Assembly: GCA_012026655.1 (NCBI GenBank)
Contig: JAAILG010000007.1
Span: forward strand, 1-64,000
Source: Hydrolagus affinis
Taxonomy: Eukaryota
Reading direction: 5' to 3'
DNA length: 64,000 nucleotides
Part shown: in pieces, positions 48,701-62,900 of the stretch
How positions within the stretch are numbered: position 1 is the first letter of the stretch
Layout: every line of letters begins with the position of its first letter
Program-made: the position numbers and the translations under genes
Notes under the pieces: model-generated
The model's input: only the letters and a program-made list of their open reading frames with translations
Told to the model about the DNA's origin: nothing
Database searches by the model: none

Positions 48701-51700
48701 GATATAGCGCTTTTCACATCTTCTGGACGTCTTAAAACGCTTCACAGAATATACTGTAAAGTGAATTGACTATATTTTGTGGGCAAAACCCGGTAGCCAA
48801 TTGTGCACAGCAGTGTCCCCACAAACAGTTGTGGATTTATGTTCGTATCTGGATTCTAACCATAAATTTATTGTGGTTAGATCAATGCCAACCCTGGGGT
48901 TGGGGGGAAAAGGAAATCCCTTTAACTGTTATCATATCGCACATTGTTATTTCTGCTGCCAAACAAAATGTCTTGTGATGGAATCATATTGCTCTCCCTA
49001 GTTTTCCAGGGAATGTTTCATCCTGAATGGCGACAGACGCAACCCACAAAGCACGAAGAGGGAGGGTATATGTAGAGTTTGAGGAGGGTAGGAGGGGTGA
49101 TGCTTCTGTAATGTTTATGTTAAGTGAACTCCTTCTGCTTTCTCCAATGTATCAAATTGTACCTTTCCAATTTCTTCCCCCTGTTTATTTTCAAGGAAAT
49201 TTTAAACATTAAGATGGACCGACTGACAAACCATCAGATCACAGAATCGGTGGCGTGCGATCGATATTCACGGGAAACTACTGAGCATCTCTGTTCTTGG
49301 ACAGAGGGCAGCACGGTGACTGACGGAGACCCGCAAACTGAACTTTTAGTGGACGAAACCCTATCGGTGGAAGAATATGAATGCATGTCACCAGACGACA
49401 TATCTTTGCCTCCGCTTCCTGAGACTCCGGAATCGAACATGCTCCATTCTGAAACCGAACTGGATGAGGTGTCCCAATTAAGTTCTCATAGTCGGCATTT
49501 TGGACCTCACAGTGCAAAGCCACAAATGGAAATGGACTGGAGCAGAATGACTGATCGCTCTGACCCAGTAACACCTGTTGCCACGGCTGACACCATAAAT
49601 CATTCAAGACCGCAAGCTTCTCATGAGCCTGACTATTATTCATCTCGCTATTCAATTCCCTGCACCGGACCCTCCCCCGCATACAGATCTGAGCCTTCCT
49701 CTTTTATCCAGCACCCACTGACCATCCCTGCACCCACTCTCGTTTCCAGCACCCTTTTGAGTATTGCGGCATCCCAAACCGTGACTAAATCCTCAACCCG
49801 TGATGCTATCTGTCGAGTGCATGAGTCTCAGCTGCAGACCTACGACGTGCATGAGAGTGCGATTGAGACCCAGCAGTCACTACTGCATGAATCCAAGAGT
49901 GACCGGTTTGCAAACCAAATGGATTCTAACAGCAATGAATTCCATGTTTCAACTGAATTACTAACAGCACCCCTCGGTGTGCACCCACCCATGCATGACA
50001 CCGCAGGCCACCACAGAGAAACCATCATCCGGGAGGGCATTCGAGATCCATTGAACAACACAGCTGTGCGCTGCCTGACTGGCACAACACCAAGCTTCTC
50101 CAAGCTCTTATCTAATGTCAATGTGGTAGAAGGTTCTCCTGTGACCTTGGAAATAGAAGTAGCAGGATTCCCAGAACCAACTTTGACGTGGTGGGTAGCC
50201 TATAACAAGCAGCAGTAATATCTACATTGCATTCAGTTGGAGGTTCAGCATGAACTTCTGACAACGGGGCCTGATTTTATTTTCAACGTTGTTCTATTTC
50301 ACGATGCAATTGCGAACCAAATTGCTTTGCTTTGCAAACATTGGTATTTTCTGTTTCTGAAGCCAATGTAATAAAAATGATGTCCAAATTAGGTGCAACC
50401 GTAAGCTAAACTTCAAACCAGGAAATTATCCATACATCATAAGTAAAGTGGAGGATGGATAATTTAGACTTATAAAAAAGCAACCCATACATAAGAAAAG
50501 TAATATTAATACCACGATAGACATTCACCAAAAATGCACGATACCTTACAGTAAATCCTGTAAACCGCTTTGCGATATTTTAGTTGCGTAATTAGATACA
50601 ATATTGAATCAAGGAGTAATATAATTATTATATCATGAAGTCATTTCATAGAATATATTTTGCTGCAAAGGTGAGTATATTATGTACATTGCACCACCGC
50701 CAAGTAATTCTCATAAACGATTCGCAGTCGTCGAATGGTAATTGTTTAGTTCAATGGCAACACACTACTTTCATGTTGTCTACAGTATGGATCAGGATTC
50801 ATCCATGCAAAACCTTAAATTGTCGGGAGAAAAATAACCATTATCATTCCAATGTTTCTGCCATCATTTCTCCTCGTAGGGGAGAAAGGGTAAATCTGGG
50901 ACCAACTTGGCAGCCTTCTCCCAAGTCGTACATTCCTATATTTCTAAGCAAATTTAAATTCTTACTCGCAACAGATGACAATAACTTCACAAAAGTGATT
51001 CTTGGAATCTCATAATCCTTTAAGCTTCAATTTTTCATAACATTTGGACTTGCGTTAAGTCACTGAATTTGATATCACTAATTGTGCTCCGTTCACCGGT
51101 TTTGATGGGGGTTCGTGGTTTGAAGGAATACAAAGGTGAAGAAACATAACAATTATAAAGAGATTTGGAGGCCCTGGAAGATTGAAGTAAACCTTTGCAT
51201 GCTTTTGTCACACAGCTAGGAAACCAATGATAATTTTAGGATGAGAATGAATCCATTATAAATCACCTCCATCTTCCAGAGGCACAATGAAAATATGAAC
51301 CGCAAATCTTTGCAACTTTGAATATATTTCCAAAATCAGGTCCCAAGTTATCAGTTATTTAAGATTGTTACTAACACTTAACTTATTTTAGAGTTAGTTT
51401 GTCGTACTAAAAAATGTTACATACTTTGCTTATATGCAGTTAATATAAAATTCATATTCTGTCTTTTTAGATGTTCTTGTTTTAATCAGGTGTTTAACTG
51501 GTGTTTGTAACTGCTTGACTTGAAAATGCACTCTTTACTTCAGGTACAAGAATGGACAGAAGCTGACAACAGATCAGCGCTTAGAAGTTTCACAAAAGGA
51601 AGGCAAACACATTCTTTTCATTCAGAAGGTGTCTGATAAAGATTCAGGCATTTATGTTGTACGAGCTATAAACTCTAGTGGCACTATCAGTTCCACTGCT

Positions 51701-51820
51701 ATACTTCAAGTACAAGGTAAATGCAGTCTCGGATGTTTCCACACTGATCCTATAGACTGGCTCACCTTTCTAGCCTGGCTGTGCATAGTGTGTGTTAGTT
51801 TGTTTCTAATGTATTTCTAG
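6602..51820 (+). CDS. CCDC141: CCDC141 (CAMDI), 25 coding exons, about 5241 nt / 1746 aa for the Ig + TM-tail isoform
   Basis: Hand-spliced exons join in one continuous frame with matching phases. Peptides match recalled human CCDC141 ([92 protein letters not shown]). The gene lies directly upstream of TTN, as in other vertebrates. Confidence 0.96.
6997..7119 (+). CDS. CCDC141: CCDC141 exon 2 (SGKCVELQ...LLAKLK)
   Basis: cccttcag acceptor, AAG|GTACAA donor, phase 0/0. Confidence 0.93.
8945..9255 (-). mobile_element. L2 LINE 3' fragment
   Basis: Reverse-strand (GTT)n tail and L2-like 3' region, similar to 58950-59180 and 63650-63990. Confidence 0.75.
9309..9426 (+). mobile_element. CR1-type LINE 3' end inserted in a SINE tail
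   Basis: Near-identical to 1-133; flanked by the two halves of a SINE 3' end. Confidence 0.8.
11430..11700 (+). mobile_element. Ancient DeuSINE (SacSINE1-like) relic
   Basis: CTGAGTCAGAAGGTTGTGGGTT head and GGGAGTGTTGCATTGTTGGAGG...GGGAGTTCT...CCTGGCCAATATT Deu-like core; related copy at about 24090-24460. Confidence 0.6.
14752..14943 (+). CDS. CCDC141: CCDC141 exon 3 (GHEDDVW...DQALE)
   Basis: ctgaaag acceptor, GAG|GTTGGT donor, 192 nt. Confidence 0.92.
15105..15213 (+). CDS. CCDC141: CCDC141 exon 4 ([10 protein letters not shown]...QHVTK), GC donor
   Basis: ttttag acceptor; AAG|GCAAGT phase-1 donor that fits exon 5. Confidence 0.9.
16069..16385 (+). mobile_element. tRNA-derived SINE, near full length (Deu-like core, L2-like tail)
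   Basis: TAGCTCAATGG A box, GGATTCGATTCC B box, GGGACACTGCTGT..CAATTGGCTGCC core, CAAATGCAAGGATTA end. Confidence 0.85.
16386..16715 (+). mobile_element. Non-autonomous Helitron-like element
   Basis: Starts TC(TTCTATATATATAAAAG), ends ACAGCTAG, lies between A and T with no target-site duplication, and interrupts the SINE (ATT)n tail. Confidence 0.7.
16831..17084 (+). CDS. CCDC141: CCDC141 exon 5 ([12 protein letters not shown]...QRADE)
   Basis: ccacag acceptor, GAG|GTAGGA donor, phase 1/0. Confidence 0.93.
19735..19854 (+). CDS. CCDC141: CCDC141 exon 6 (VIQWIRQ...VSKAK)
   Basis: Spectrin-like W...LGSSL motif; AAG|GTAAGA donor; 120 nt. Confidence 0.9.
21162..21350 (+). CDS. CCDC141: CCDC141 exon 7 (GCAPERLE...YSSANK)
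   Basis: gtccag acceptor, AAG|GTTAGT donor, 189 nt. Confidence 0.9.
22593..22692. other. Assembly gap (100 N)
   Basis: Run of exactly 100 N in CCDC141 intron 7. Confidence 0.99.
22693..22882 (-). mobile_element. L2 LINE ORF2 C-terminal fragment
   Basis: [16 protein letters not shown]...[17 protein letters not shown], a typical L2 ORF2 end. Confidence 0.9.
26517..26802 (+). mobile_element. tRNA-derived SINE, same family as 16069
   Basis: Shared head, core and tail. Confidence 0.85.
29478..29780 (+). mobile_element. tRNA-derived SINE, full length
   Basis: TAGCTCAGTGG A box, GGTTCAATTCC B box, shared core and tail. Truncated + copies lie at about 575-750, 23160-23345, 25370-25545, 31040-31200 and 41840-42010; - copies at about 45660-45790, 48680-48840 and 54945-55180. 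Confidence 0.88.
29864..30036 (+). CDS. CCDC141: CCDC141 exon 8 (GFDVLG...KIGPQ)
   Basis: accag acceptor, AG|GTAAGA phase-2 donor. Confidence 0.92.
30483..30506. repeat. (TA)n microsatellite; others at about 31858-31890, 55033-55071 and 60885-60915, (CAGA)n at 31977-31998, (GT)n at 6358-6377
   Basis: Read directly from the sequence. Confidence 0.9.
30729..30870 (+). CDS. CCDC141: CCDC141 exon 9 (SRASGIQQM...DHFDK)
   Basis: tttag acceptor in phase 2, AAG|GTATCC donor. Confidence 0.9.
31708..31827 (+). CDS. CCDC141: CCDC141 exon 10 (VSIWLQ...SDQSK)
   Basis: 120 nt open frame, GSSLSESE motif, AAG|GTAAAA donor. Confidence 0.88.
32693..32884 (+). CDS. CCDC141: CCDC141 exon 11 (GVAKKIA...KYAEE)
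   Basis: cttcag acceptor, GAG|GTGGAA donor, 192 nt. Confidence 0.88.
33488..33664 (+). CDS. CCDC141: CCDC141 exon 12 (VEEAMQ...SSVLL)
   Basis: ttcag acceptor, CTG|GTAAGA donor, 177 nt. Confidence 0.9.
34972..35151 (+). CDS. CCDC141: CCDC141 exon 13 (TNESLS...EQVKK)
   Basis: ttccag acceptor, AAG|GTAGGG donor, 180 nt. Confidence 0.92.
36958..37083 (+). CDS. CCDC141: CCDC141 exon 14 (TIGSLK...KPHLQ)
   Basis: gttcag acceptor, CAG|GTGAGG donor, 126 nt. Confidence 0.92.
37596..37784 (+). CDS. CCDC141: CCDC141 exon 15 (QLNAEVEY...RTTQE)
   Basis: actag acceptor, GAG|GTATAT donor, 189 nt. Confidence 0.9.
37860..38292 (+). mobile_element. L2 LINE 3' end with duplicated tail
   Basis: Decayed ORF2 end and two tandem copies of CCTGACGTGAAA..GCGCT..TGTAATTTTGTTGTTG. 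Confidence 0.85.
38525..38704 (+). CDS. CCDC141: CCDC141 exon 16 (LESLMRS...IVQHS)
   Basis: ttccag acceptor, TCG|GTAAGT donor, 180 nt. Confidence 0.92.
38813..38962 (+). CDS. CCDC141: CCDC141 exon 17 (KSVVASVE...EEIQE)
   Basis: aatag acceptor, GAG|GTTACA donor, 150 nt. Confidence 0.87.
41331..41471 (+). CDS. CCDC141: CCDC141 exon 18 (LKESYKD...SEKIQ)
   Basis: ccttag acceptor, CAG|GTAAAT donor; highly conserved peptide. Confidence 0.94.
41581..41778 (+). CDS. CCDC141: CCDC141 exon 19 (IFKRKI...QAMEE)
   Basis: cttcag acceptor, GAG|GTATGT donor, 198 nt. Confidence 0.93.
42160..42343 (+). CDS. CCDC141: CCDC141 exon 20 (SQFWCEE...AMRLY)
   Basis: ctgcag acceptor, phase-1 donor G|GTTAGA; [12 protein letters not shown] motif. 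Confidence 0.94.
44778..44896 (+). CDS. CCDC141: CCDC141 exon 21 ([10 protein letters not shown]...KLQIK)
   Basis: Phase-1 ttcaag acceptor, AAG|GTACAA donor. Confidence 0.9.
45906..45983 (+). CDS. CCDC141: CCDC141 exon 22 (TDAPGQKK...EKENQ)
   Basis: Strong pyrimidine tract and caacag acceptor, purine-rich 78 nt open frame, CAG|GTAGCA donor, phase 0/0; little recognisable homology. Confidence 0.72.
46738..47268 (+). CDS. CCDC141: CCDC141 exon 23, S/T-rich (GENIIST...LEEQQ); alternative end at 47283
   Basis: 177-codon open frame with gacag acceptor; two in-frame candidate donors. Confidence 0.75.
47872..48600 (-). mobile_element. L2 LINE internal ORF2 fragment (start of RT domain)
   Basis: [15 protein letters not shown]...[11 protein letters not shown]...[11 protein letters not shown] on the minus strand. 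Confidence 0.85.
49196..50190 (+). CDS. CCDC141: CCDC141 exon 24 (large S/T/P-rich exon plus N-terminal half of the Ig domain); reads through to a stop at 50218 if unspliced
   Basis: Matches ORF 49124-50218; ttcaag acceptor, TG|GTGGGT phase-2 donor. Confidence 0.93.
51544..51820 (+). CDS. CCDC141: CCDC141 exon 25 (C-terminal half of Ig domain plus hydrophobic tail); internal donor after 51716
   Basis: WYKNGQKL...[14 protein letters not shown]...[20 protein letters not shown]; AATAAA at 51882. Confidence 0.92.
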
Positions 51821-52831
51821 TTTATTTAACTGTTATGTATCACTGTTTTGATTACATTGATGTTTTTCACCTTGTACTAAAAATAAAGTTGGTACCTGGC
51901 CTTACCACAAGTAATATCACAATGCAATGTTTCAATGCACTACCTCTGCACTGCAAAAGAGTTTTGAATGTTAACTTTTTTATTGAAAACTCCAAGTTTC
52001 ACTGAAATGCTGGTAAATGTTAATAATGTAATTTAAAACATTGACTGTTATTTCTCAGTAAGATATCATAATATTCCAGTACCCATGCACAGTATTAATG
52101 GAATCGTACTGTTAATAACACAATCAGTGACACTGATTAAAACCTTCACTGTATTCGTTCACATTCACAGTATTGTTAGCACAAAAACTGAGCAATTTGA
52201 CTTGGCAAATTAATTTGCACACTTTCTGATATCCTTATCTGTTTGCAAAGAAAAAAAATTTAAACTATTTTTATGACGAGTTTAAACCTATCTATATATT
52301 TTAACATATGAAACATTTTTTCTGAGATTTTTTTTATCTTCCTGATACTGTTTGTGTGATATGTTTTGGAATAGATGCAATGGAAAATTATTAGGTGGAA
52401 TTTTAGATGAATAGGTAGTGGAGTGTGTTAATGTTATTATGCACTGTGCACAGAGCAGTAGAAAATGTCCTGCGTTTTCCCCCAAACTGGTGATAGAGTA
52501 TACATTTGCAATCTGATAGCAAGACAGTGGCTGAAGTCTGGGAACAAACGAGAATGCCTGCACGCTCAGCCAATCTACCAGACAGAAGGAAGGGAGTAAA
52601 ATAAGAATTTACAATCAATGAAGGTTCAACATACTGTAAGTTATGACAAAGACTATAGGGAAGTCATACAAAAAAGCATTTAAAGCAAATTAATTCTGAG
52701 GCTGCATTGACTAAAGTATACATCGGATCACCAATATACTGTAATTACATTTCAATCTTCTATTAGGATGATGGAAAGGCTGTGTATCCCTAAAATGAAT
52801 TGCATTTCCCCCTGCATATTTCCCTATACAG

Positions 52832-53001
52832 CTTTGCAATGCGTTGACAACACTTTTATCAACAATTTATTGGTGCACTTGTATTGGTTCCTGGTATTGT
52901 CACTCTTTTCCATTGTGTGCATTGCAGTATTATTCCTCACCTTTGGTTCCACTCACTCTGAGACCAATGAAATCCAATTTATTGAATCTGGCCTTCGATA
53001 G
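52832..53001 (+). CDS. CCDC141: Putative alternative terminal exon of CCDC141 with a transmembrane helix
   Basis: Pyrimidine-rich acceptor (tttccctatacag) in phase 1; encodes (A)LQCVDNTFINNLLVHLYWFLVLSLFSIVCIAVLFLTFGSTHSETNEIQFIESGLR*. Confidence 0.55.
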
Positions 53002-53414
53002 TGGAATGGTATCCAATTTAACGAAACTGACTAAGAGACACTGAAACATGCAGCGTTAACACAATGCACTTTCTACTCTGCTCATTGCAATGAAAATACA
53101 CTGGACACGCTGGCCTGTTTCGAGTCCGACTTACATGGAGGTTGGATCAAAGGTAGCTCACATTAAAAATCACTTCTGATGTTCATATTTTACAATTTAA
53201 ATTAATTCCTATGTATGAAAGATGGCATGAATGCAGTTCCTCTCCCACATCAAACAAAACAAGGCAAACTAAACAACATGCAATAAGCAGAGATTAACTT
53301 ATGTTTTTTTTCTTATTTTTACATTTTGCTCTTGTAAATCAAAAAATGTAATTAAATTTAGGAGTATCTCCCTATGTCTCCCTACGTACATGTTCTACTG
53401 GTGCAGCAATATAT

Positions 53415-53620
53415 CATAGAATGTTACAGCACAGAAGGAGGCCATTAGGCCCATCGAGTCTGTACCGACTCTTTGACCGAGCAAGTCACTTTCATTAACC
53501 CCAATCACCAGCTTTCTCCCCATAACCCTGCAAACCCGTCTTCCCCAGATACCTATCTAGTTCTCTGTTAAAAGCTGCTATCGAATCGGATCTCACTACC
53601 CTTTCAGGCAGATCATTCCT
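53415..53620 (-). mobile_element. CR1-type LINE 3' end
   Basis: CATAGAATG..ACAGCACAGAAGGAGGCCATTAGGCCCATCGAG is the reverse of the CR1 terminus. Confidence 0.8.
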
Positions 53621-56600
53621 ATGGGTTACCAGTGGTAACTTTATGGTCTATGGTGTCAGATGTCATCTGAAGGCAAGGCTCGATTGTTTAATTCTGTTAA
53701 CTCTGGTACAGCACATAACAAATAACAGTTCAGCTGACAACTACACCTGACATTTCTGTTGTAGCATTCCTGGATATCGTTTGTATAAAAATGCAGTTGG
53801 GTGCAGGGACAAAGAACAAAGAGAAAGCAAACTTTGCACAGCTTGACCTCTCAGCAAGAATTAATAGTGAGGTTATTCTCCTCAACGGAAGTGAATTGAG
53901 TTTCATCACACGGTGGTCATGCACACTGCTGATGCATCTGAGGAAACCACTTGCATACAGTGTTGACCCAATAGTGATAAAGTAATCTTTGCATTTGATA
54001 TAGCGCCTTATCACGTCTTCAAGACGTCTCAAAGTGCTTCACGGAATATACTATAAAGTGTAGTGACTGTGCAGTGAAATTAGATATTTTAGCAAAGTGG
54101 CCTCTCTTAAAAAAAGGTGGAAACAGAAGAATATTTTGCTATTAGAATAATGCAGGAATGTAGTAATGTGACAGGAAAATGCCTTGCAAACTCAAATTTA
54201 TGCAAACCTGGACAACCTAAATGAACGTGGATGTATTTGCTGCAAAAATATGTTCACTTTGATATTGATATTCCTTCAAAAGTCAATCCAAAGTAAATGT
54301 TTACAGGGGTGGAGTTCATGCGCCTGAGGTGAGAAGCAATAGACTATATTACTAGTCTCAACAAATATACACATTGAGTGTATTGACCGGTAAAAAATCC
54401 AGAGTTGATTTTCATTGTATTAATGTGTCTCCTACTGGTTCAGATATAAAATAAACTTGAGATTATTCATTGTGTTACTAAGAACTATTATTTTTTTCTC
54501 AGATGAGTCTTGTTTTTGTGTAACAATGTACAATGTAAGGTCTTTGTGTGGCTTTTGTGTCAACATAACAACTGGAAATTTATAAAAATGATGCACTAGT
54601 CATAATGATAGCTCCCTCACAACCTCACACTTACTCGCAGTATATTGCTCAGTTGGTTGTCCATTCTGCCAATCAAATATAATTGATGTTTTTTCTTTAA
54701 ATCATTGAGCAACAAAGCCAAGTTGCTAGGGTTCTTCAGTTGGGAGAGGACAACTCAGAGGAGACCACATAGAAGGGTAGAAAATGTTAAATGAGATTGC
54801 AAAAATAAACCCAGATGAATCATTTAGGTTGTTTCAGGACAATAGAATAAGAGGACAAAGGTTCAGAGTTTTAAAGGATGATTTTAGGACAGATACCAGG
54901 AAGATTTTCTTTAGGCAGAACGTAATCAATAATAATAATAACAGTCCTTGCATTTGATATAGAACTTTACACATCTTCTAGATGTCTCAAAGTACTTCAC
55001 AGAATATGCTGTAAAGTGAATTGATTGTATCTATATATATATATATATAGTATATATATATATATATATATTTGGACAAAACGTGGCAGCCAATTGCACA
55101 CAGCAGTGTCTCACAAACAGTTGTGGATTGAAGTGATCAATTTATTATTGGTTTTTTTTGAGGGATTATTTTTAGGCATGTGAAGAGTGCCAATTGACTG
55201 GACTCTTGACTCATTTAAAAGGCAGCTCGTTTGAGGGAAGGTTGGTTGGTGTTTGGGAGGTATGAAATGGGATGGGCTGAAGTAATTTCTTTATATCAAT
55301 CTTGTTATCAAACCATTTTCTGGTCTTTTGGTTGAGATTTCCTTCAGCTACAAAGGGCCAAACAATCTCTGCACTGCTTTTCTTGGTGAAAGATGGGTCC
55401 AGGGGGGTGAAGTGCTGTTCCAAATGCAACTGCTCTAATAATCATGGTCTTCTTCAGCCTCTAAAATCATGATACAGTCAGACATTTAATCAAAGCCGAG
55501 TCCAGCATTAAGCAGCAATAGCTCCAGCTCTATGCATACGTGAGCTACCTTACAATTGCTCACAAGTCCTAAAAACCACAACAGCTCAATCATGGTGATT
55601 TAATTCCTGATTTAATCTTGGATGGATATTCAGATGAGACACTGAAATTAATTTCAGGAACTCTGAAATACGGAAGAGATTAGGGCATTGGGGGTGGGAG
55701 AGACTAGAAATTAATACAACAAAAGAAGAACTTTTTTAAAAGAAGTTACAGAGATAAGGTATATTCCTAAGAAAAGGAGACTAGCAGAAGGCTGAGACAA
55801 TAGTAGATTAATTGAGGACATCGGTTGTAACAAAAAGGTGCAGAAGGATTTAAAGGACTCAGCGAATCAAAAAATAGTATGAGATAGAAGTCTTATTTAA
55901 GTCTTAATTATTTGAATAAGTATTAGAGAGGCTAAGAAGAAAATAGAAGGATTGGTGAAAGTAATAAGAGGAATAATTTTAAGCTGTGTAGAAAGTAAGG
56001 GAACTTTAAATGCCCGTCTACTTATGGGAGCAAATTTGTGGTGATCATCAACAAATTCCTCCCAAAGGCTCTCGTGAATGAAAGCTGTGTACAAGCTCTA
56101 GATCTAATCAACAAGGAGTCTTTGGACAGTCTGAATTCTCTGGTTCTATAGGCTGAACAGAAATCAATTCACTTCACTGGCATTTTAGAATTCTTTTAAT
56201 GTCCTCAACATGAGAGGGGCCTGAAATTCAATCAAAAGGTAACCCGGCAACTGGCCTAATAACATCCCTTCATTTATTCCACATAGTCAAAACACTACAG
56301 CTGGTATTAATGTCAAATAAATCCGCACAGATTCACGGGAGCATTTGCAAGTACTGTAGAAGGAAATTGTAAGCTTCACTTTAAAATAAAGAGCCCGACA
56401 TTCCTGTCATCTCAATTCCAGTGATCATCTAGACGTGCACAAATAGGGCTGATTGTTGAGAGATTGCATTAATAGATAATGTATTACTGTCGGTTTTCCA
56501 AACCTTAGAAAATGTTTTCAGTTACAAGGCTGTGAAAAAGGCCAATTTAGTTTAATAAGGTCTACATAAAAGGTATTAGAGTGAAACATAGTACACCAGA

Positions 56601-57995
56601 CACCTCTAATTGAATTATTAATGCTATTTCATGAGTGATTTATTGAAGGATATTAAGGTATCACTAAAGCAGTCAGAAATCTTTGCCCCTGTATGAGAAA
56701 TTAATACAGAACAGTCTTACAAAGACATAGCTACATTGGGCTGCATATTGGAGTGAAGAAGTCCCAAGTACATGGAAAGTACTCATTTTAGTACCAATTT
56801 GATTGCTATTATTTTTGTGCAGGTTTATAGTCAATTTAATTTTGCTACATTCATGAATCTCTGAGAACATTTCTTTGTGAAATGAATTAATGGAGGAGGT
56901 AATTGTATCATCAGGATTGTCGCTCTATTCACGTCAACAGTTACCAACAGCAGGCGCACACGCAAAGATGCCCTAGAGGATCACATTGCTCATTTCTCGT
57001 GAGCTCTGCAACCGGGCACCATATGGATGTATTAATAGTCAGAACTATATGCTGTTCCTATTTAGTTTTTGCTGCCTATTGCATATATTTTATGCGGCTT
57101 ATGCATGAAACTCGTAGTTATTTGGTAAAAAAATATCACTTATTGGGAAGTGACTTGCTGAAATTGTTCTGTTTGAAAACAAAGTCAATTCAAACACCGT
57201 AGAAGATTAAATGAATCACAAAATGATTGTGTAGAAGTGTATTGAATGGATCATGGTAATTAAAACACACTGCATCTCTGTCAAGGAAAAAAAAGAAACC
57301 AACAACTTTGCTGTTCGCCGAGTGTGTTTTCACCATCGATTTCCCTATATAGTCTTGAGATATGCGCAAAGCCTGGTATTTGGAGTTGAGGAACAAATCA
57401 GCCATGATCTAATAGAATGACAGAACAGACTCAAGGTATGAACAGCCTTCTTCTGTTCCTATATTCCTGTAGATAGAAGGCTTGAAAAATTAAAATTAAA
57501 ATCTAATTAAATAAATAAATCTAAATTAAAAAAATGCAGTTAAACAAACTCTCAGTTAGCTGCCAATAGTATTCAAATTCCTTCATACCAGAACCATCCC
57601 TGGAATTAGCATTTTAACTCTCTACCAGCACAATCCTTTCAGTACAAGATATAGGCTATTGATAAACAGTGGATTGTATTGTGGTAAGTGTATTGCTAAA
57701 TTGATCAAACTGGCAACTTTTTCCTCGGTTCTTCTTTATCTGAAACATTCCATTTTCTCTCCATTATAGCAAACCCATCTGTGAAAATGAATCAGGAGTA
57801 ATTTGCATGGCCTTGTTTATTACAGTGGATGATTCTCTGCACGCTCTCTGTCTTTCTAATAAAGCGTTTTATCCAAAAGAAGATCCTTGTTCAAGAAACT
57901 TTATTTCTAAAAATAACTCTCACTGCTAACCTCATTCCACCATAATTACCCACAAAATGTATTTTTTTAAAAAGAACAATGTCATTTATTTCTAG

Positions 57996-58150
57996 TACAA
58001 GACAAGGCGCCTGACTTTGAAAAGAGATTTGCTGATTGTGTTTTGATGCAAGGGGATGATCTGATACTCCAGTGTATTATATCAGGACAACCCAAGCCAA
58101 GTGTGATGTGGTTTAAAGATTCCACAGTGCTGTCACCCAGAGATTCCAAT
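57996..58150 (+). CDS. Extra Ig I-set domain, N-terminal half (downstream exon)
   Basis: tttctag phase-1 acceptor; (V)QDKAPDFEKRFADCVLMQGDDLILQCIISGQPKPSVMWFKDSTVLSPRDSN; AAT|GTGAGA donor. Confidence 0.88.
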
Positions 58151-58272
58151 GTGAGAATCACTTGCTTTTATTTTTTGCTCCATTTACACACTCGTTTCGT
58201 TAGATAATTCAGGTGTAATCTGTTTAGTCCAGCACCCATTATTGAACGAGTGCAATGTGTTGTTTTGTTCAG

Positions 58273-58402
58273 GTAACAAGTTCAGGTGAAACGCATGTAT
58301 TCAGGAAAAGAAACGTTGGCTCAGCTGATAGCGGCTTGTATCGTTGTATTGCCACAAACACAGAAGGTGAAGTGTGCTGCTCTGCTTCAGTAGTTGTTAC
58401 AG
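58273..58402 (+). CDS. Extra Ig I-set domain, C-terminal half (downstream exon)
   Basis: ttgttcag acceptor; VTSSGETHVFRKRNVGSADSGLYRCIATNTEGEVCCSASVVVT; CAG|GTAATT phase-1 donor. Confidence 0.88.
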
Positions 58403-59269
58403 GTAATTATGGAATGATTTAATACAATTTAAAAATGTTTGGATATTTCCTGCATTATGTACCACAGTGCTTATCATTAATCCAGTGATGATAACCAGAT
58501 GACAATTATGGATTCAAGATAAAATGCTAACATTCAGGTTTGCACAGAACTAGGAGGATGCTCATTTCTCAGTCAAAAGGGTTGAAGATCAGATTGCGAT
58601 TCAGTGACAGTCTCTGGTGACTGGAGCGCTAAAGGTCGAAGCTAATCGTATTATTTCCAAGTAATCGACTGACAAAAGTTCTCAATAAACTTACAACACA
58701 GAAATTCTTCAAGCCAAGCTGCTGAATGTGAATGTGCAGCAACTACATGAAGAAGCCTGGGGGAGAAAAAAAACTTCAGCTGAGAACATCAGCCATTATC
58801 AGCTCAAAAATAAACTGAATAATGCCACCTATTCCGGTTATGGTAATCATGGAATTAAATCAATTATAGCAGACAAGGGGGGCCTTTGCACTCTTCAAGA
58901 CTATCTCTTCAAGATTGTGTAAGGTTCATCGATTGGGAGCTATCTAAACTAATACAACAACAACATACACTTATATAGTGCCATCCGCAAGGGTAGCGTC
59001 TCAGAGCACTTAACAGTAATGGAGCCTGACTCCGAGTGGGTGGGGTAGGTGACCATAAGCATGGTCGAAAAGGAAGGTTTTCAGGAGGGATATGAAAAAG
59101 GGGAGAGAGGAGAAAAAGCGGCAGGATTGAGGTAGAGTGTTCCAGAGCTTTGGGGTGTAGTGGTTGGAAGCGCGACATCCAATTTTAAGCCCCCTCCCTG
59201 CTCTTTCTCTGCATTGTTATGTATTCTACATCTTCAAATCCTTATCCAATTCCCTTTTTCCACGATTAT

Positions 59270-60328: not shown

Positions 60329-60491
60329 AAAAAACTAAAGGACAACTATGCACTTTTATCAAGGACACTGCTGAAAAAGGTCGTAAAGATATGACAATGA
60401 CAGTGACAACTGAATCAGCTGCAAATCTGAAATGCCTTGCAGCAAGTTATATAAAAGGCCAAAGATCAGAGATTGGACAAGTTCAGTTGGG
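60329..60491 (+). CDS. Putative linker exon between the extra Ig domain and TTN
   Basis: catttcag phase-1 acceptor; open frame (E)KTKGQLCTF...IGQVQL(G); GG|GTAGGT phase-2 donor. Confidence 0.5.
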
Positions 60492-61899
60492 GTAGGTTAT
60501 TCAACGTCTATTTATGTGGCAGCTGATGCCTTTCAGTTTGTGTCACCATGGAACACATAGGACAATCCTTCAAAATGCACATAACCCTTTCATATCAGAT
60601 TAAATGCAAAGATACTATAATAAAGTGAAGCAACACTGCATTGGAGTGTCAGTCAAGACTGTGCGCTACCAACTGAGCCACGCTGATCCCTTTACAGTAT
60701 ATACATACGTTTCTCTCCTCTTTGACTATGCCTTCGGCCACGCTCCGACCCTGCAGGCACTCCACTCTCCCTGATCCCAATCTCCCCCCATTCGGGTCCA
60801 AATCCCTGACTGTCCAGTGCATTGTGACATCCTCCCGATGTGAAAGTTCTTATACAAATGTTATTTTGTATTGTGTGTGGGTGTATATATACATATATAT
60901 ATATATATGTATATACACAGTTCACTTTACAATATGTTTTGTGGAGCTCTTTGAGAGGTCTCAACATTGTGAAAAGTTGGAGGGATTAGGCAAGGGTTGT
61001 CAGTACATGTAGTTTGAAATTGAAAATCTGAAATGTGAGGCGTTGAAGTATTCATTGTGGAACTACAGAGCACCCTGATGGGTTTACCTACATAAAATTC
61101 CTCATCTTAATTTTGCCCGGTAAAATCATCAACATCTCAGCTTTCGATTTGGTGTTAATAGATTTCGATTTGTTAGCAGAATTGTATTTTTATTGTAATG
61201 CAATATATAGTAAAAATAAATTTCTAATTTGATTAAGATGTAGCTTGCAGAAGTATAATAATCAGTTTCTCATGAATAGTTTCTACTAATAAGTTGAAAG
61301 TAGTGTAGTTTTATATCTCATTATATTTTAACAACTTAACCTTCAAATCAACCAAAGCAATTGGCCCCTCATTACGTTTCAGTCCACTTTTACAATGAGA
61401 TAGAATTACACATCATTCTATCTTATGCCCCTTTGAATATGTTGAGCGTCTTTGACTACTTACAAATACAAAAAGAAACAATTGTGGAATCCCCCACAAA
61501 AAATATTTCCGTAGTTTGGAGTTTGTCTATATTTGGAAACATTTGAATTAGATTTGCTCTTTTGTAAATAGAAGAGTTTTGCGTTTGGTTTGGTGATTGG
61601 CACATACAGTTGCTGGTGTCCATGTGTCAGAGGAGCAAAATGGTCTTGAAATTGATTGACAGCGACAGACAGGACTTGTGCATTCAAATGCGCCCTGTTG
61701 CTAAGGGCTTCATTCTTTCCTTATCAGTTTTGGTGATAACAAGAATACAGTAAGAATACAGTAAGAACCGACCAAGGAAAGGGTCTCAGATACATAGTCT
61801 GTTGTTACTTGAACTGAACTTAGTCATCGTGAGCAAGATGGTGGAATAGAACTAACCCTCAGAACTTAATGCGACAAAATTAGCACTGTCTGCATAAAA

Positions 61900-62053
61900 G
61901 TGAAGTGACTGACAGCTGTTGGGTTCCATATAACGGATCGCTTTCCCATGAAGCCTTGACGGAGTACCCAATCAGAGGTCTTGGGGTAATCATGCTGCAT
62001 AATTATCAGTAGAGCTGTGGTATAAAAGGTAAAACGACCATGTTAGCAATTCT
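61900..62053 (+). promoter_or_regulatory. TTN: TTN core promoter
   Basis: TATAAAA at 62021-62027, about 30 nt before the conserved exon-1 start; E-box CAGCTG at 61913; near-CArG CCATATAACG at 61926. Confidence 0.75.
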
Positions 62054-62270
62054 GAGCGGTTCAGGCACTCCCAGCCTTGCCTCGGGTGTAGGGATTGCAT
62101 AGGAAAATTAAAACTACACCCAGACCACAGCCTGCGTGTAGTTTTGTTTCCTTTTAGTAAGAGGTATACCCATTCTCTCGGTGGATTGTTGAAAAATATC
62201 TGGATAAGGAGGCAGTTTCCAAACCTATATTCCATAGGGCTTGGCCCATTTACTTAGGCACTCTTGAAAG
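62054..62270 (+). other. TTN: Titin non-coding exon 1 (5'UTR)
   Basis: Blocks CCCAGCCTTGCCTCGGGTGTAGGGATTGCATAG, AAAACTACAC..GTGTAGTTTTG and TTAGGCACTCTTGA match the human TTN 5'UTR as I recall it; AAG|GTCAGT donor; synteny with CCDC141. The start site is approximate. Confidence 0.85.
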
Positions 62271-62449: not shown

Positions 62450-62900
62450 CACGTTAGTCGGTCTTTTGTGTATGAAATTCATCGTTGGACAACGATCAGT
62501 GTTGAAATATTTGGAAACAAACTCTGTTTGGGAAAATAGCTAGAAAATAGCTGTTTAATTAAATGAGGGAAGCCTAAAAGACGACTGTAACTTTTAAAGT
62601 TTTCAAGGTTAGGCTATGGATGGATGAATTGAGGACTGCTAAAAATAGTGCTGATGATATGCATGTGGCATCAGCCAGGCAGTGATGACTTTTTAAGGGA
62701 ATCAGTGCATGAGCTATTATTTGTACCACTAGCTATGTGGCACTTGTCCTCTGTCAATCATTGACATTTGGCTAAATTTAAACCTCAGCTCTTCAACCCC
62801 AAACCAGCTGATCATCGCTTATACAGACACCATGGTTCAGATTTAGAAAATGTTGCAAGCTCACTTACACTCCAATAAAGAACTACAAGTGGTGCAACAT
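62450..62900. promoter_or_regulatory. Candidate TTN intron-1 muscle enhancer
   Basis: MEF2 sites CTAAAAATAG (62639) and CTAAATTTAA (62772), NKX-type CACTTAA (62459), E-boxes CATGTG (62662) and CAGCTG (62805). Confidence 0.55.

Follow-up and report, generated by a model that had tools for sequence, protein, structure and literature searches.

The interval between CCDC141 and titin (TTN) in the chimaera Hydrolagus affinis holds three exons, A, B, and C, that are best read as an intact cassette conserved across jawed vertebrates and that probably serve as a minor alternative 3' end of CCDC141, in which the membrane anchor following the first Ig domain (Ig1) is swapped for a second I-set Ig domain (Ig2) and a short linker. 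We put the probability of this reading at roughly 0.7. By its sequence, Ig2 is an old and constrained domain, already present in databases, and not a relic.

The window, by which we mean the whole stretch of DNA analyzed, comprises the first 64 kb of a 238.7-kb contig (GCA_012026655.1, JAAILG010000007.1). The elephant-shark CCDC141 protein aligns to it in 23 colinear pieces, mostly at 79 to 95% identity, and we therefore identify the gene in the window as CCDC141. TTN lies downstream on the same strand; its first coding exon begins at contig position 64270, 270 bases beyond the window end, carries a 13-nucleotide leader before an ATG at 64283, and must be entered in phase 2. Titin Ig, PEVK, and Fn3 exons extend up to the contig end. 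Exons A, B, and C sit between the conventional CCDC141 stop (51820) and a putative TTN promoter, and the features on which our argument draws are the following.

50075 to 50190, + strand: closing part of the long CCDC141 exon, which encodes the first half of Ig1 (Pfam I-set model positions 1-34), with a phase-2 donor after 50190
51544 to 51716, + strand: second half of Ig1; its terminal phase-1 donor is where the membrane tail and the Ig2 cassette diverge
51717 to 51820, + strand: read-through hydrophobic (TM) tail and conventional CCDC141 stop, the main isoform in reads
57996 to 58150, + strand: exon A, first half of Ig2 (strands A-C'), Pfam I-set 35.8 bits
58151 to 58272, + strand: 122-nucleotide phase-0 intron within Ig2, GT-AG, at a position shared with alligator models
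58273 to 58402, + strand: exon B, second half of Ig2, Pfam I-set 27.8 bits, with a phase-1 donor
60329 to 60495, + strand: exon C, a 55-codon linker with a phase-1 acceptor and two candidate ends, the stop codon TAG at 60493-60495 and a phase-2 donor following 60491
60599 to 60624, + strand: candidate poly(A) signals ATTAAA (60599) and AATAAA (60619), which apply if exon C is terminal
62021 to 62270, + strand: putative TTN promoter with TATAAAA at 62021, together with a non-coding exon 1 whose start is approximate and whose donor follows 62270
62639 to 62648, + strand: MEF2-type site about 600 nucleotides past the putative TTN start, at the position of the human TTN intron-1 enhancer

The initial annotation, made from the letters of the DNA, had proposed two short exons that splice into an Ig domain without a stop or frameshift. 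We recover both exons to the base, all of their introns are bounded by GT and AG, and the Ig1 exon (51544-51716) spliced to A and B reads through with 0 stops in frame. Exon A, with an acceptor ending in ttctag and the donor gtgaga, is entered in phase 1 and left in phase 0, and its acceptor ranks at the 98th percentile among local AGs under a crude matrix. Exon B has an acceptor ending in gttcag and leaves in phase 1 through the donor gtaatt, which falls at the 32nd percentile under the same crude matrix, one that also ranked the Ig1 donor low. Read-through of exon B would add 6 more residues before a stop at 58420-58422, and an AATAAA lies at 58684. A next exon near 58520 was considered and rejected because no AG stands there in the right phase. 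The distance of some 6 kb from the conventional stop was also right (6.2 kb from the TM-tail stop codon at 51818-51820), and the suggestion that the transcript can continue past exon B agrees with the further exon that we locate at 60329.

The I-set identity proposed for the domain is confirmed by Pfam PF07679, against which each exon alone exceeds the cut-off of 23.7, exon A at 35.8 bits (model 1-44) and exon B at 27.8 bits (model 50-90). The core motifs of the fold are all present (P-x-F, the B-strand Cys, G-x-P-x-P, Trp, D-x-G-x-Y-x-C, and A-x-N-x-x-G), and alignment upholds the further claim that Ig2 keeps the core Cys pair while Ig1 lacks both. When the profile was made exclusively from 14 bony-vertebrate orthologs, the spliced Ig2 of the window scored 109 bits and Ig1 42 bits. 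Run against the whole 238.7-kb contig translated in six frames (7,754 peptides), this profile gave its top match to the exon A frame alone (61.9 bits), and the best titin Ig reached 57.9 bits. Given 109 bits versus 42 for Ig1 and 57.9 for the best titin Ig, the domain encoded by exons A and B is not a chance match.

The domain had also been described as hidden, a description that does not survive comparison with the databases: orthologous exons already figure in the RefSeq/UniRef gene models of CCDC141 for numerous jawed vertebrates outside the mammals, one shark among them. The long CCDC141 exon, used as a query, matched 377 proteins, and our counts are taken from the 120 listed, 47 of which carry a complete second Ig after Ig1. 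The models that bear Ig2 come from sturgeon, paddlefish, gar, bichir, lungfish, lizards, snakes, turtles, alligator and crocodilians, birds, and the epaulette shark, and every one of them places it directly after CCDC141 Ig1. Chondrichthyans contributed 61 records, 54 of them longer than 1,000 residues, and Ig2 occurs in 1 of these 54, from the epaulette shark Hemiscyllium ocellatum (XP_060684102.1; P0136); the three elephant-shark records all end in the TM tail without Ig2. Among the matches listed, Ig2 was found in 0 of 14 amphibian and 0 of 7 teleost records, and no mammal appeared among the 120 listed of 377. Loss in amphibians and teleosts is not established by these counts, because 53 of the 54 long chondrichthyan records lack Ig2 as well and gene models under-report the cassette. 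A word search of low sensitivity with the lungfish Ig2 region gave 9 matches of 86 candidates (lungfish, six birds, and one titin) and no mammal, amphibian, or teleost CCDC141; the same kind of search with exon A alone gave 2 candidates, neither of them scored, and was uninformative.

The window copy of Ig2 is 58% identical to that of the shark, 42 to 52% identical to those of bony vertebrates, and 19 to 29% identical to Ig1 and titin Igs. Of the columns that are invariant among 57 distinct Ig2 orthologs it preserves 23 of 23, and of the near-invariant ones 7 of 14; it matches 30 of 38 conserved columns versus 12 of 57 others (Fisher p 2e-8). The earlier view that the domain is intact rather than a relic is thus well founded, and it looks functional. 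An unusual Lys near the end of strand E, tried as a sign of decay, was rejected as such, for it is invariant across the Ig2 family. The internal intron of Ig2 falls at the same position in the intron-retaining alligator models P0042-P0046. In our tree, Ig2 forms one side of a branch with 95/95 support, window and shark join at 100/100, and the window end branch is short (0.14); one titin row (Z1), mis-spliced, was disregarded though it is still in the tree. The epithet "titin-type" given to the domain consequently fits its predicted fold and not its relationship, since it groups with the CCDC141 Ig2 orthologs rather than with the titin Igs of the contig. Ig2 has diverged much faster than Ig1: the chondrichthyan stem branch measures 0.69 for Ig2 versus 0.13 for Ig1, and window-shark identity is 58% versus 85%. 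A turtle ortholog of Ig2 is predicted as an I-set domain with pLDDT of 85 to 97 over the domain and below 50 in a disordered tail, and its best solved matches, at about 1 Å, are obscurin-like-1 and titin Igs. The jawed-vertebrate ancestor likely had a second CCDC141 Ig together with a membrane-free ending.

Exon C was located through the epaulette-shark model, which has a 54-residue tail after Ig2 and whose last exon is orthologous to exon C. Downstream of exon B and before TTN exon 1, 86 AG sites open a phase-1 frame of at least 15 codons, and we scored each of them against this tail. The acceptor at 60329 was the best of the 86, with a score of 43 versus 14 for the next independent site and a background maximum of 28 among 3,376 sites; none of 2,000 shuffles reached it. 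Exon C can be terminal, because its TAG at 60493-60495 is followed by ATTAAA and AATAAA. Its orthologs differ in length by whole codons (38, 51, 53, 55, and 56) despite identities of 8 to 34%; the exon is shortened in the rattlesnake and kagu models and missing from those of sturgeon, paddlefish, and alligator. Bird, turtle, lizard, and reedfish models splice exon C to local exons, not to titin, and tblastn of the bird, turtle, and lizard tails beyond exon C returned nothing significant in 51.7-64.4 kb.

Several models preserve what looks like read-through of a phase-2 donor at the end of exon C. The sequences of nine database models (gar, alligator gar, bowfin, bichir, lungfish, Zootoca, Pogona, great tit, and rhea) and of 4 Logan ORFs terminate at the aligned position, where an R, K, or G precedes a stop or Cys, and sister models continue after the same residue; these 13 ends were selected from models ending near that point, and 8 others, including the shark, lack the trace. 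In wall lizard, two isoforms translate the exon that follows in frames offset by a single base, over 26 of 26 codons, and this identifies the wall-lizard exon C donor as phase 2. Judged by these models, the phase-2 donor of exon C is old and conserved across jawed vertebrates.

Upstream of the cassette, CCDC141 has further endings. ORF 49124-50215 includes the last part of the long CCDC141 exon plus read-through past 50190, which reaches a stop at 50216-50218 and corresponds to a half-Ig isoform. The window at 50191-50218 encodes a short W-V-A-Y-N-type tail and stop, and similar tails occur in salamander and skate records. The half-Ig isoform, known from mouse, looks equally old on this comparison. 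The elephant-shark protein P0003 ends in the same TM tail as the window at 51717-51820. Many shark and ray models join the Ig1 donor to short unrelated tails (P0004, P0009, P0129, P0137, P0138, P0155, P0159, P0160, P0163, and P0165), and because they splice there, chondrichthyans use the Ig1 donor even in species whose models omit Ig2.

RNA evidence came from three stranded single-cell runs (X2, X3, and X4) of one sample of a very close relative, 27 to 30% of each run, and from one contig set, all placed on 49196-58940. Depth over the Ig1/TM bin (51471-51795) was 20.2, 2.35, and 20.6 in the three runs. The two Ig2 bins had depths of 1.24 and 0.91 in X2, sense only and with empty flanking bins, and 0 in X3 and X4. 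Ig1 with the TM tail is the dominant form in this sample, and use of Ig2 is at most minor. No Ig2 splice junction occurs among the 15 joint rows listed of 762, all 15 of which lie in repeats. X2 also shows sense depth of 1.9 to 2.7 in the intron that precedes exon A (56346-57320), flanked by empty bins; this signal is either read-through pre-mRNA or an unnoticed non-coding exon, and given its presence the X2 reads over Ig2 may themselves be unspliced read-through. Expression of Ig2 in this species is weakly indicated. Sense depth further runs about 2.6 kb past the TM-tail stop (51821-54400) and is gone by 55371, marking an extended 3' UTR for the main form of CCDC141, with an approximate end position. 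A read pile-up at 54390 was rejected as a poly(A) site, as it precedes a run of six A and likely reflects internal priming, and a dip in X1 depth over 57.6-58.9 kb was set aside as a possible filtering artifact.

The start of TTN bounds the cassette on its other side. The region of the putative TTN exon 1 presumably resembles the human TTN 5' UTR. MEF2-type matches number 5 in the window versus 1.6 expected. The TATA-like element at 62021, the donor after 62270, and the MEF2-type site at 62639 likely mark, on sequence grounds, the TTN promoter, exon 1, and intron-1 enhancer. In human TTN, PMC11827840 (also PMC11827849) places the intron-1 enhancer about 500 bp past the start. The putative exon 1 contains an internal AG acceptor at 62158. 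Minimum-energy and centroid folds both form a long hairpin at 62090-62165, inside this exon, whose 3' arm carries the pyrimidine tract of that acceptor, and such a hairpin could mask 62158 from transcripts arriving from CCDC141; the whole exon folds no better than shuffles (z -1.2). An early titin exon region at contig 68141-69283 holds a long Gly/Ser/Ala/Thr low-complexity repeat that is open in several frames on both strands.

We propose that the Ig1 donor acts as a switch. Read-through yields the membrane-anchored form, which is seen in the sequence and is the main form in the reads. Use of the phase-1 donor would skip the TM tail and its 3' UTR and splice to A, B, and C, as in the orthologous models, and the resulting transcript would most often end at or soon after exon C. 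Its predicted product combines spectrin repeats with two Ig domains in tandem, lacks a membrane anchor, and, by extrapolation from mouse, may be a soluble sarcomere-binding form free of the nuclear or costameric membrane. A fraction of transcripts may run on into titin. The exon structure, open frame, orthology, shared intron positions and residues, and the orthology of exon C all argue for the cassette; the lack of an observed junction, the zero Ig2 depth in 2 of 3 runs, the single Ig2 among 54 long chondrichthyan records, the fast divergence of Ig2, and the low exon B donor score argue against it.

An alternative reading is that chimaeras have recently silenced these exons, which bony vertebrates conserve, and no longer splice them. 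The 53 long chondrichthyan records without Ig2, the absence of depth over Ig2 in X3 and X4, and the long chondrichthyan stem branch all lean that way. We consider it very unlikely nonetheless, for the window retains all 23 invariant residues, both introns, every splice dinucleotide, and a third in-frame exon, its end branch is short, and a shark model includes the cassette. It is scarcely credible that the exons belong instead to TTN, whether as an upstream first-exon set with a separate promoter or as a titin Ig exon recently duplicated nearby. They do lie 3.6 kb from the putative TTN promoter, nearer to it than to the CCDC141 stop. However, the phase-1 acceptor of exon A matches the Ig1 donor, every model with Ig2 attaches it to CCDC141 Ig1, the titin Igs of the contig are single exons with 19 to 29% identity that fall outside the Ig2 group, and there is one DNA match in the genome. 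Ig2 is, moreover, upstream of the putative TTN exon 1 and outside the titin rows of the tree.

A third alternative, compatible with an alternative 3' end, is that some transcripts splice the phase-2 donor of exon C over the TTN promoter into the first coding exon of titin to encode a single protein, much as fly Zormin and D-titin arise from sls. The path Ig1-A-B-C-titin over GT-AG sites contains 0 stops: exon C converts phase 1 to the phase 2 that titin requires, whereas direct joins of Ig1 or exon B to the same acceptor are out of frame and stop after 22 codons. The titin first coding exon also has two AGs two bases apart (contig 64270-64272); spliced to the second, weaker one, the phase-1 donors of Ig1 and exon B would enter titin in frame without exon C. 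The age of the exon C donor (9 models, 4 Logan ORFs, and the wall-lizard isoforms) and the whole-codon variation in its length despite low identity favor such a bridge, and the local exon after C in lizards, read in different frames, offers a poor reason for keeping phase. PMC12657953 and PMC12198301 report RNA that runs across CCDC141 and TTN in mammals, and a single gene that yields both Zormin and D-titin. Against this, the bridge frame would arise by chance 1 time in 3, and the supporting donor ends were hand-picked (13, with 8 other printed ends lacking the trace). A search of 1.84 billion representatives with an exon C profile found no fused protein among its 6 matches; the word searches covered up to 2,000-2,862 residues, too short to reveal one. 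Known models join exon C to local exons (bird, turtle, lizard, and reedfish), shorten it (rattlesnake and kagu), or omit it (sturgeon, paddlefish, and alligator). Of the 205 AGs between exon C and TTN, 4 outscore the titin acceptor, and one of these, 62158 within TTN exon 1, would give a 32-codon tail and stop. No C-to-TTN junction read was seen; the reads were placed on 49196-58940, a stretch that ends before exon C and TTN. We regard the bridge as rather doubtful.

A broader conjecture, possible at best, is that non-mammalian jawed vertebrates still make a CCDC141-titin fusion, with Ig2 and exon C as the frame-converting bridge of an ancestral gene ("connectitin") kept for about 450 million years. 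Titin would thereby gain an N-terminal spectrin-repeat extension able to tie its Z-disc end to nesprin or costameres, and lineages without the cassette would be left with the out-of-frame spanning RNA reported in mammals. If the in-frame join is used, living sharks, fish, reptiles, and birds have not completed the proposed split of connectitin into CCDC141 and titin, and their titin carries an unrecognized N-terminal extension.

The alternative 3' end of CCDC141, our preferred reading, has consequences of its own. A second Ig corrects the one-Ig picture of vertebrate CCDC141, and together with the membrane-free ending it bears on how this heart-rate and cardiac-stress gene docks onto titin. 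In mouse, PMC12657953 reports that the CCDC141 C terminus binds the titin C- and P-zones, and that the TM form localizes to the nuclear envelope and Z-line and the TM-less form to the A-band/M-line. The titles and abstracts listed in our literature searches, which covered mainly open-access papers, contain no description of a second CCDC141 Ig or an in-frame bridge, and the word CCDC141 is absent from the main text of the elephant-shark titin paper (PMC12241362). The Ig2 cassette is annotated in gene models, yet undescribed in the literature searched.

The closest known counterparts are the two-Ig RefSeq/UniRef isoforms of CCDC141 (XP_060684102.1; Lepisosteus oculatus XP_015214533; Protopterus annectens XP_043931242.1; Taeniopygia guttata XP_041573471.2), which share with the window an Ig2 of the same length right after Ig1, its internal intron, its invariant residues, and a linker exon of similar length. 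These isoforms are computed gene models, and unlike them the three elephant-shark records lack Ig2. With the titin, obscurin-like-1, and telokin I-set Igs (PF07679), Ig2 has in common the hallmark residues and, judged from the model of a turtle ortholog, the fold; it differs in being split over two exons, in a slightly shorter C'-D region, and in its invariant Lys near the end of strand E, a position that is hydrophobic in titin Igs. The window holds both endings of mammalian CCDC141/CAMDI isoforms 1 and 2, namely the half-Ig read-through and Ig1 with the TM tail. Compared with the mammalian gene as described in PMC12657953, with one Ig and 24 exons, the window would add a third ending. Beyond vertebrates, the portion of PMC12198301 at hand proposes an ancestral SESTD1-CCDC141-TTN gene, connectitin, cites transcripts spanning CCDC141 and titin for human and fly, and contrasts the one Ig of human CCDC141 with the several of Zormin. 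That same portion treats vertebrate CCDC141 as a one-Ig gene separate from titin and makes no mention of an in-frame splice route in vertebrates. The likeness to Drosophila Zormin/sls and connectitin lies in an order of spectrin repeats and then several Ig domains, in a location ahead of titin, and in transcripts that cover the two together (PMC12198301), and a two-Ig CCDC141 product would stand closer to the multi-Ig layout reported for fly Zormin.
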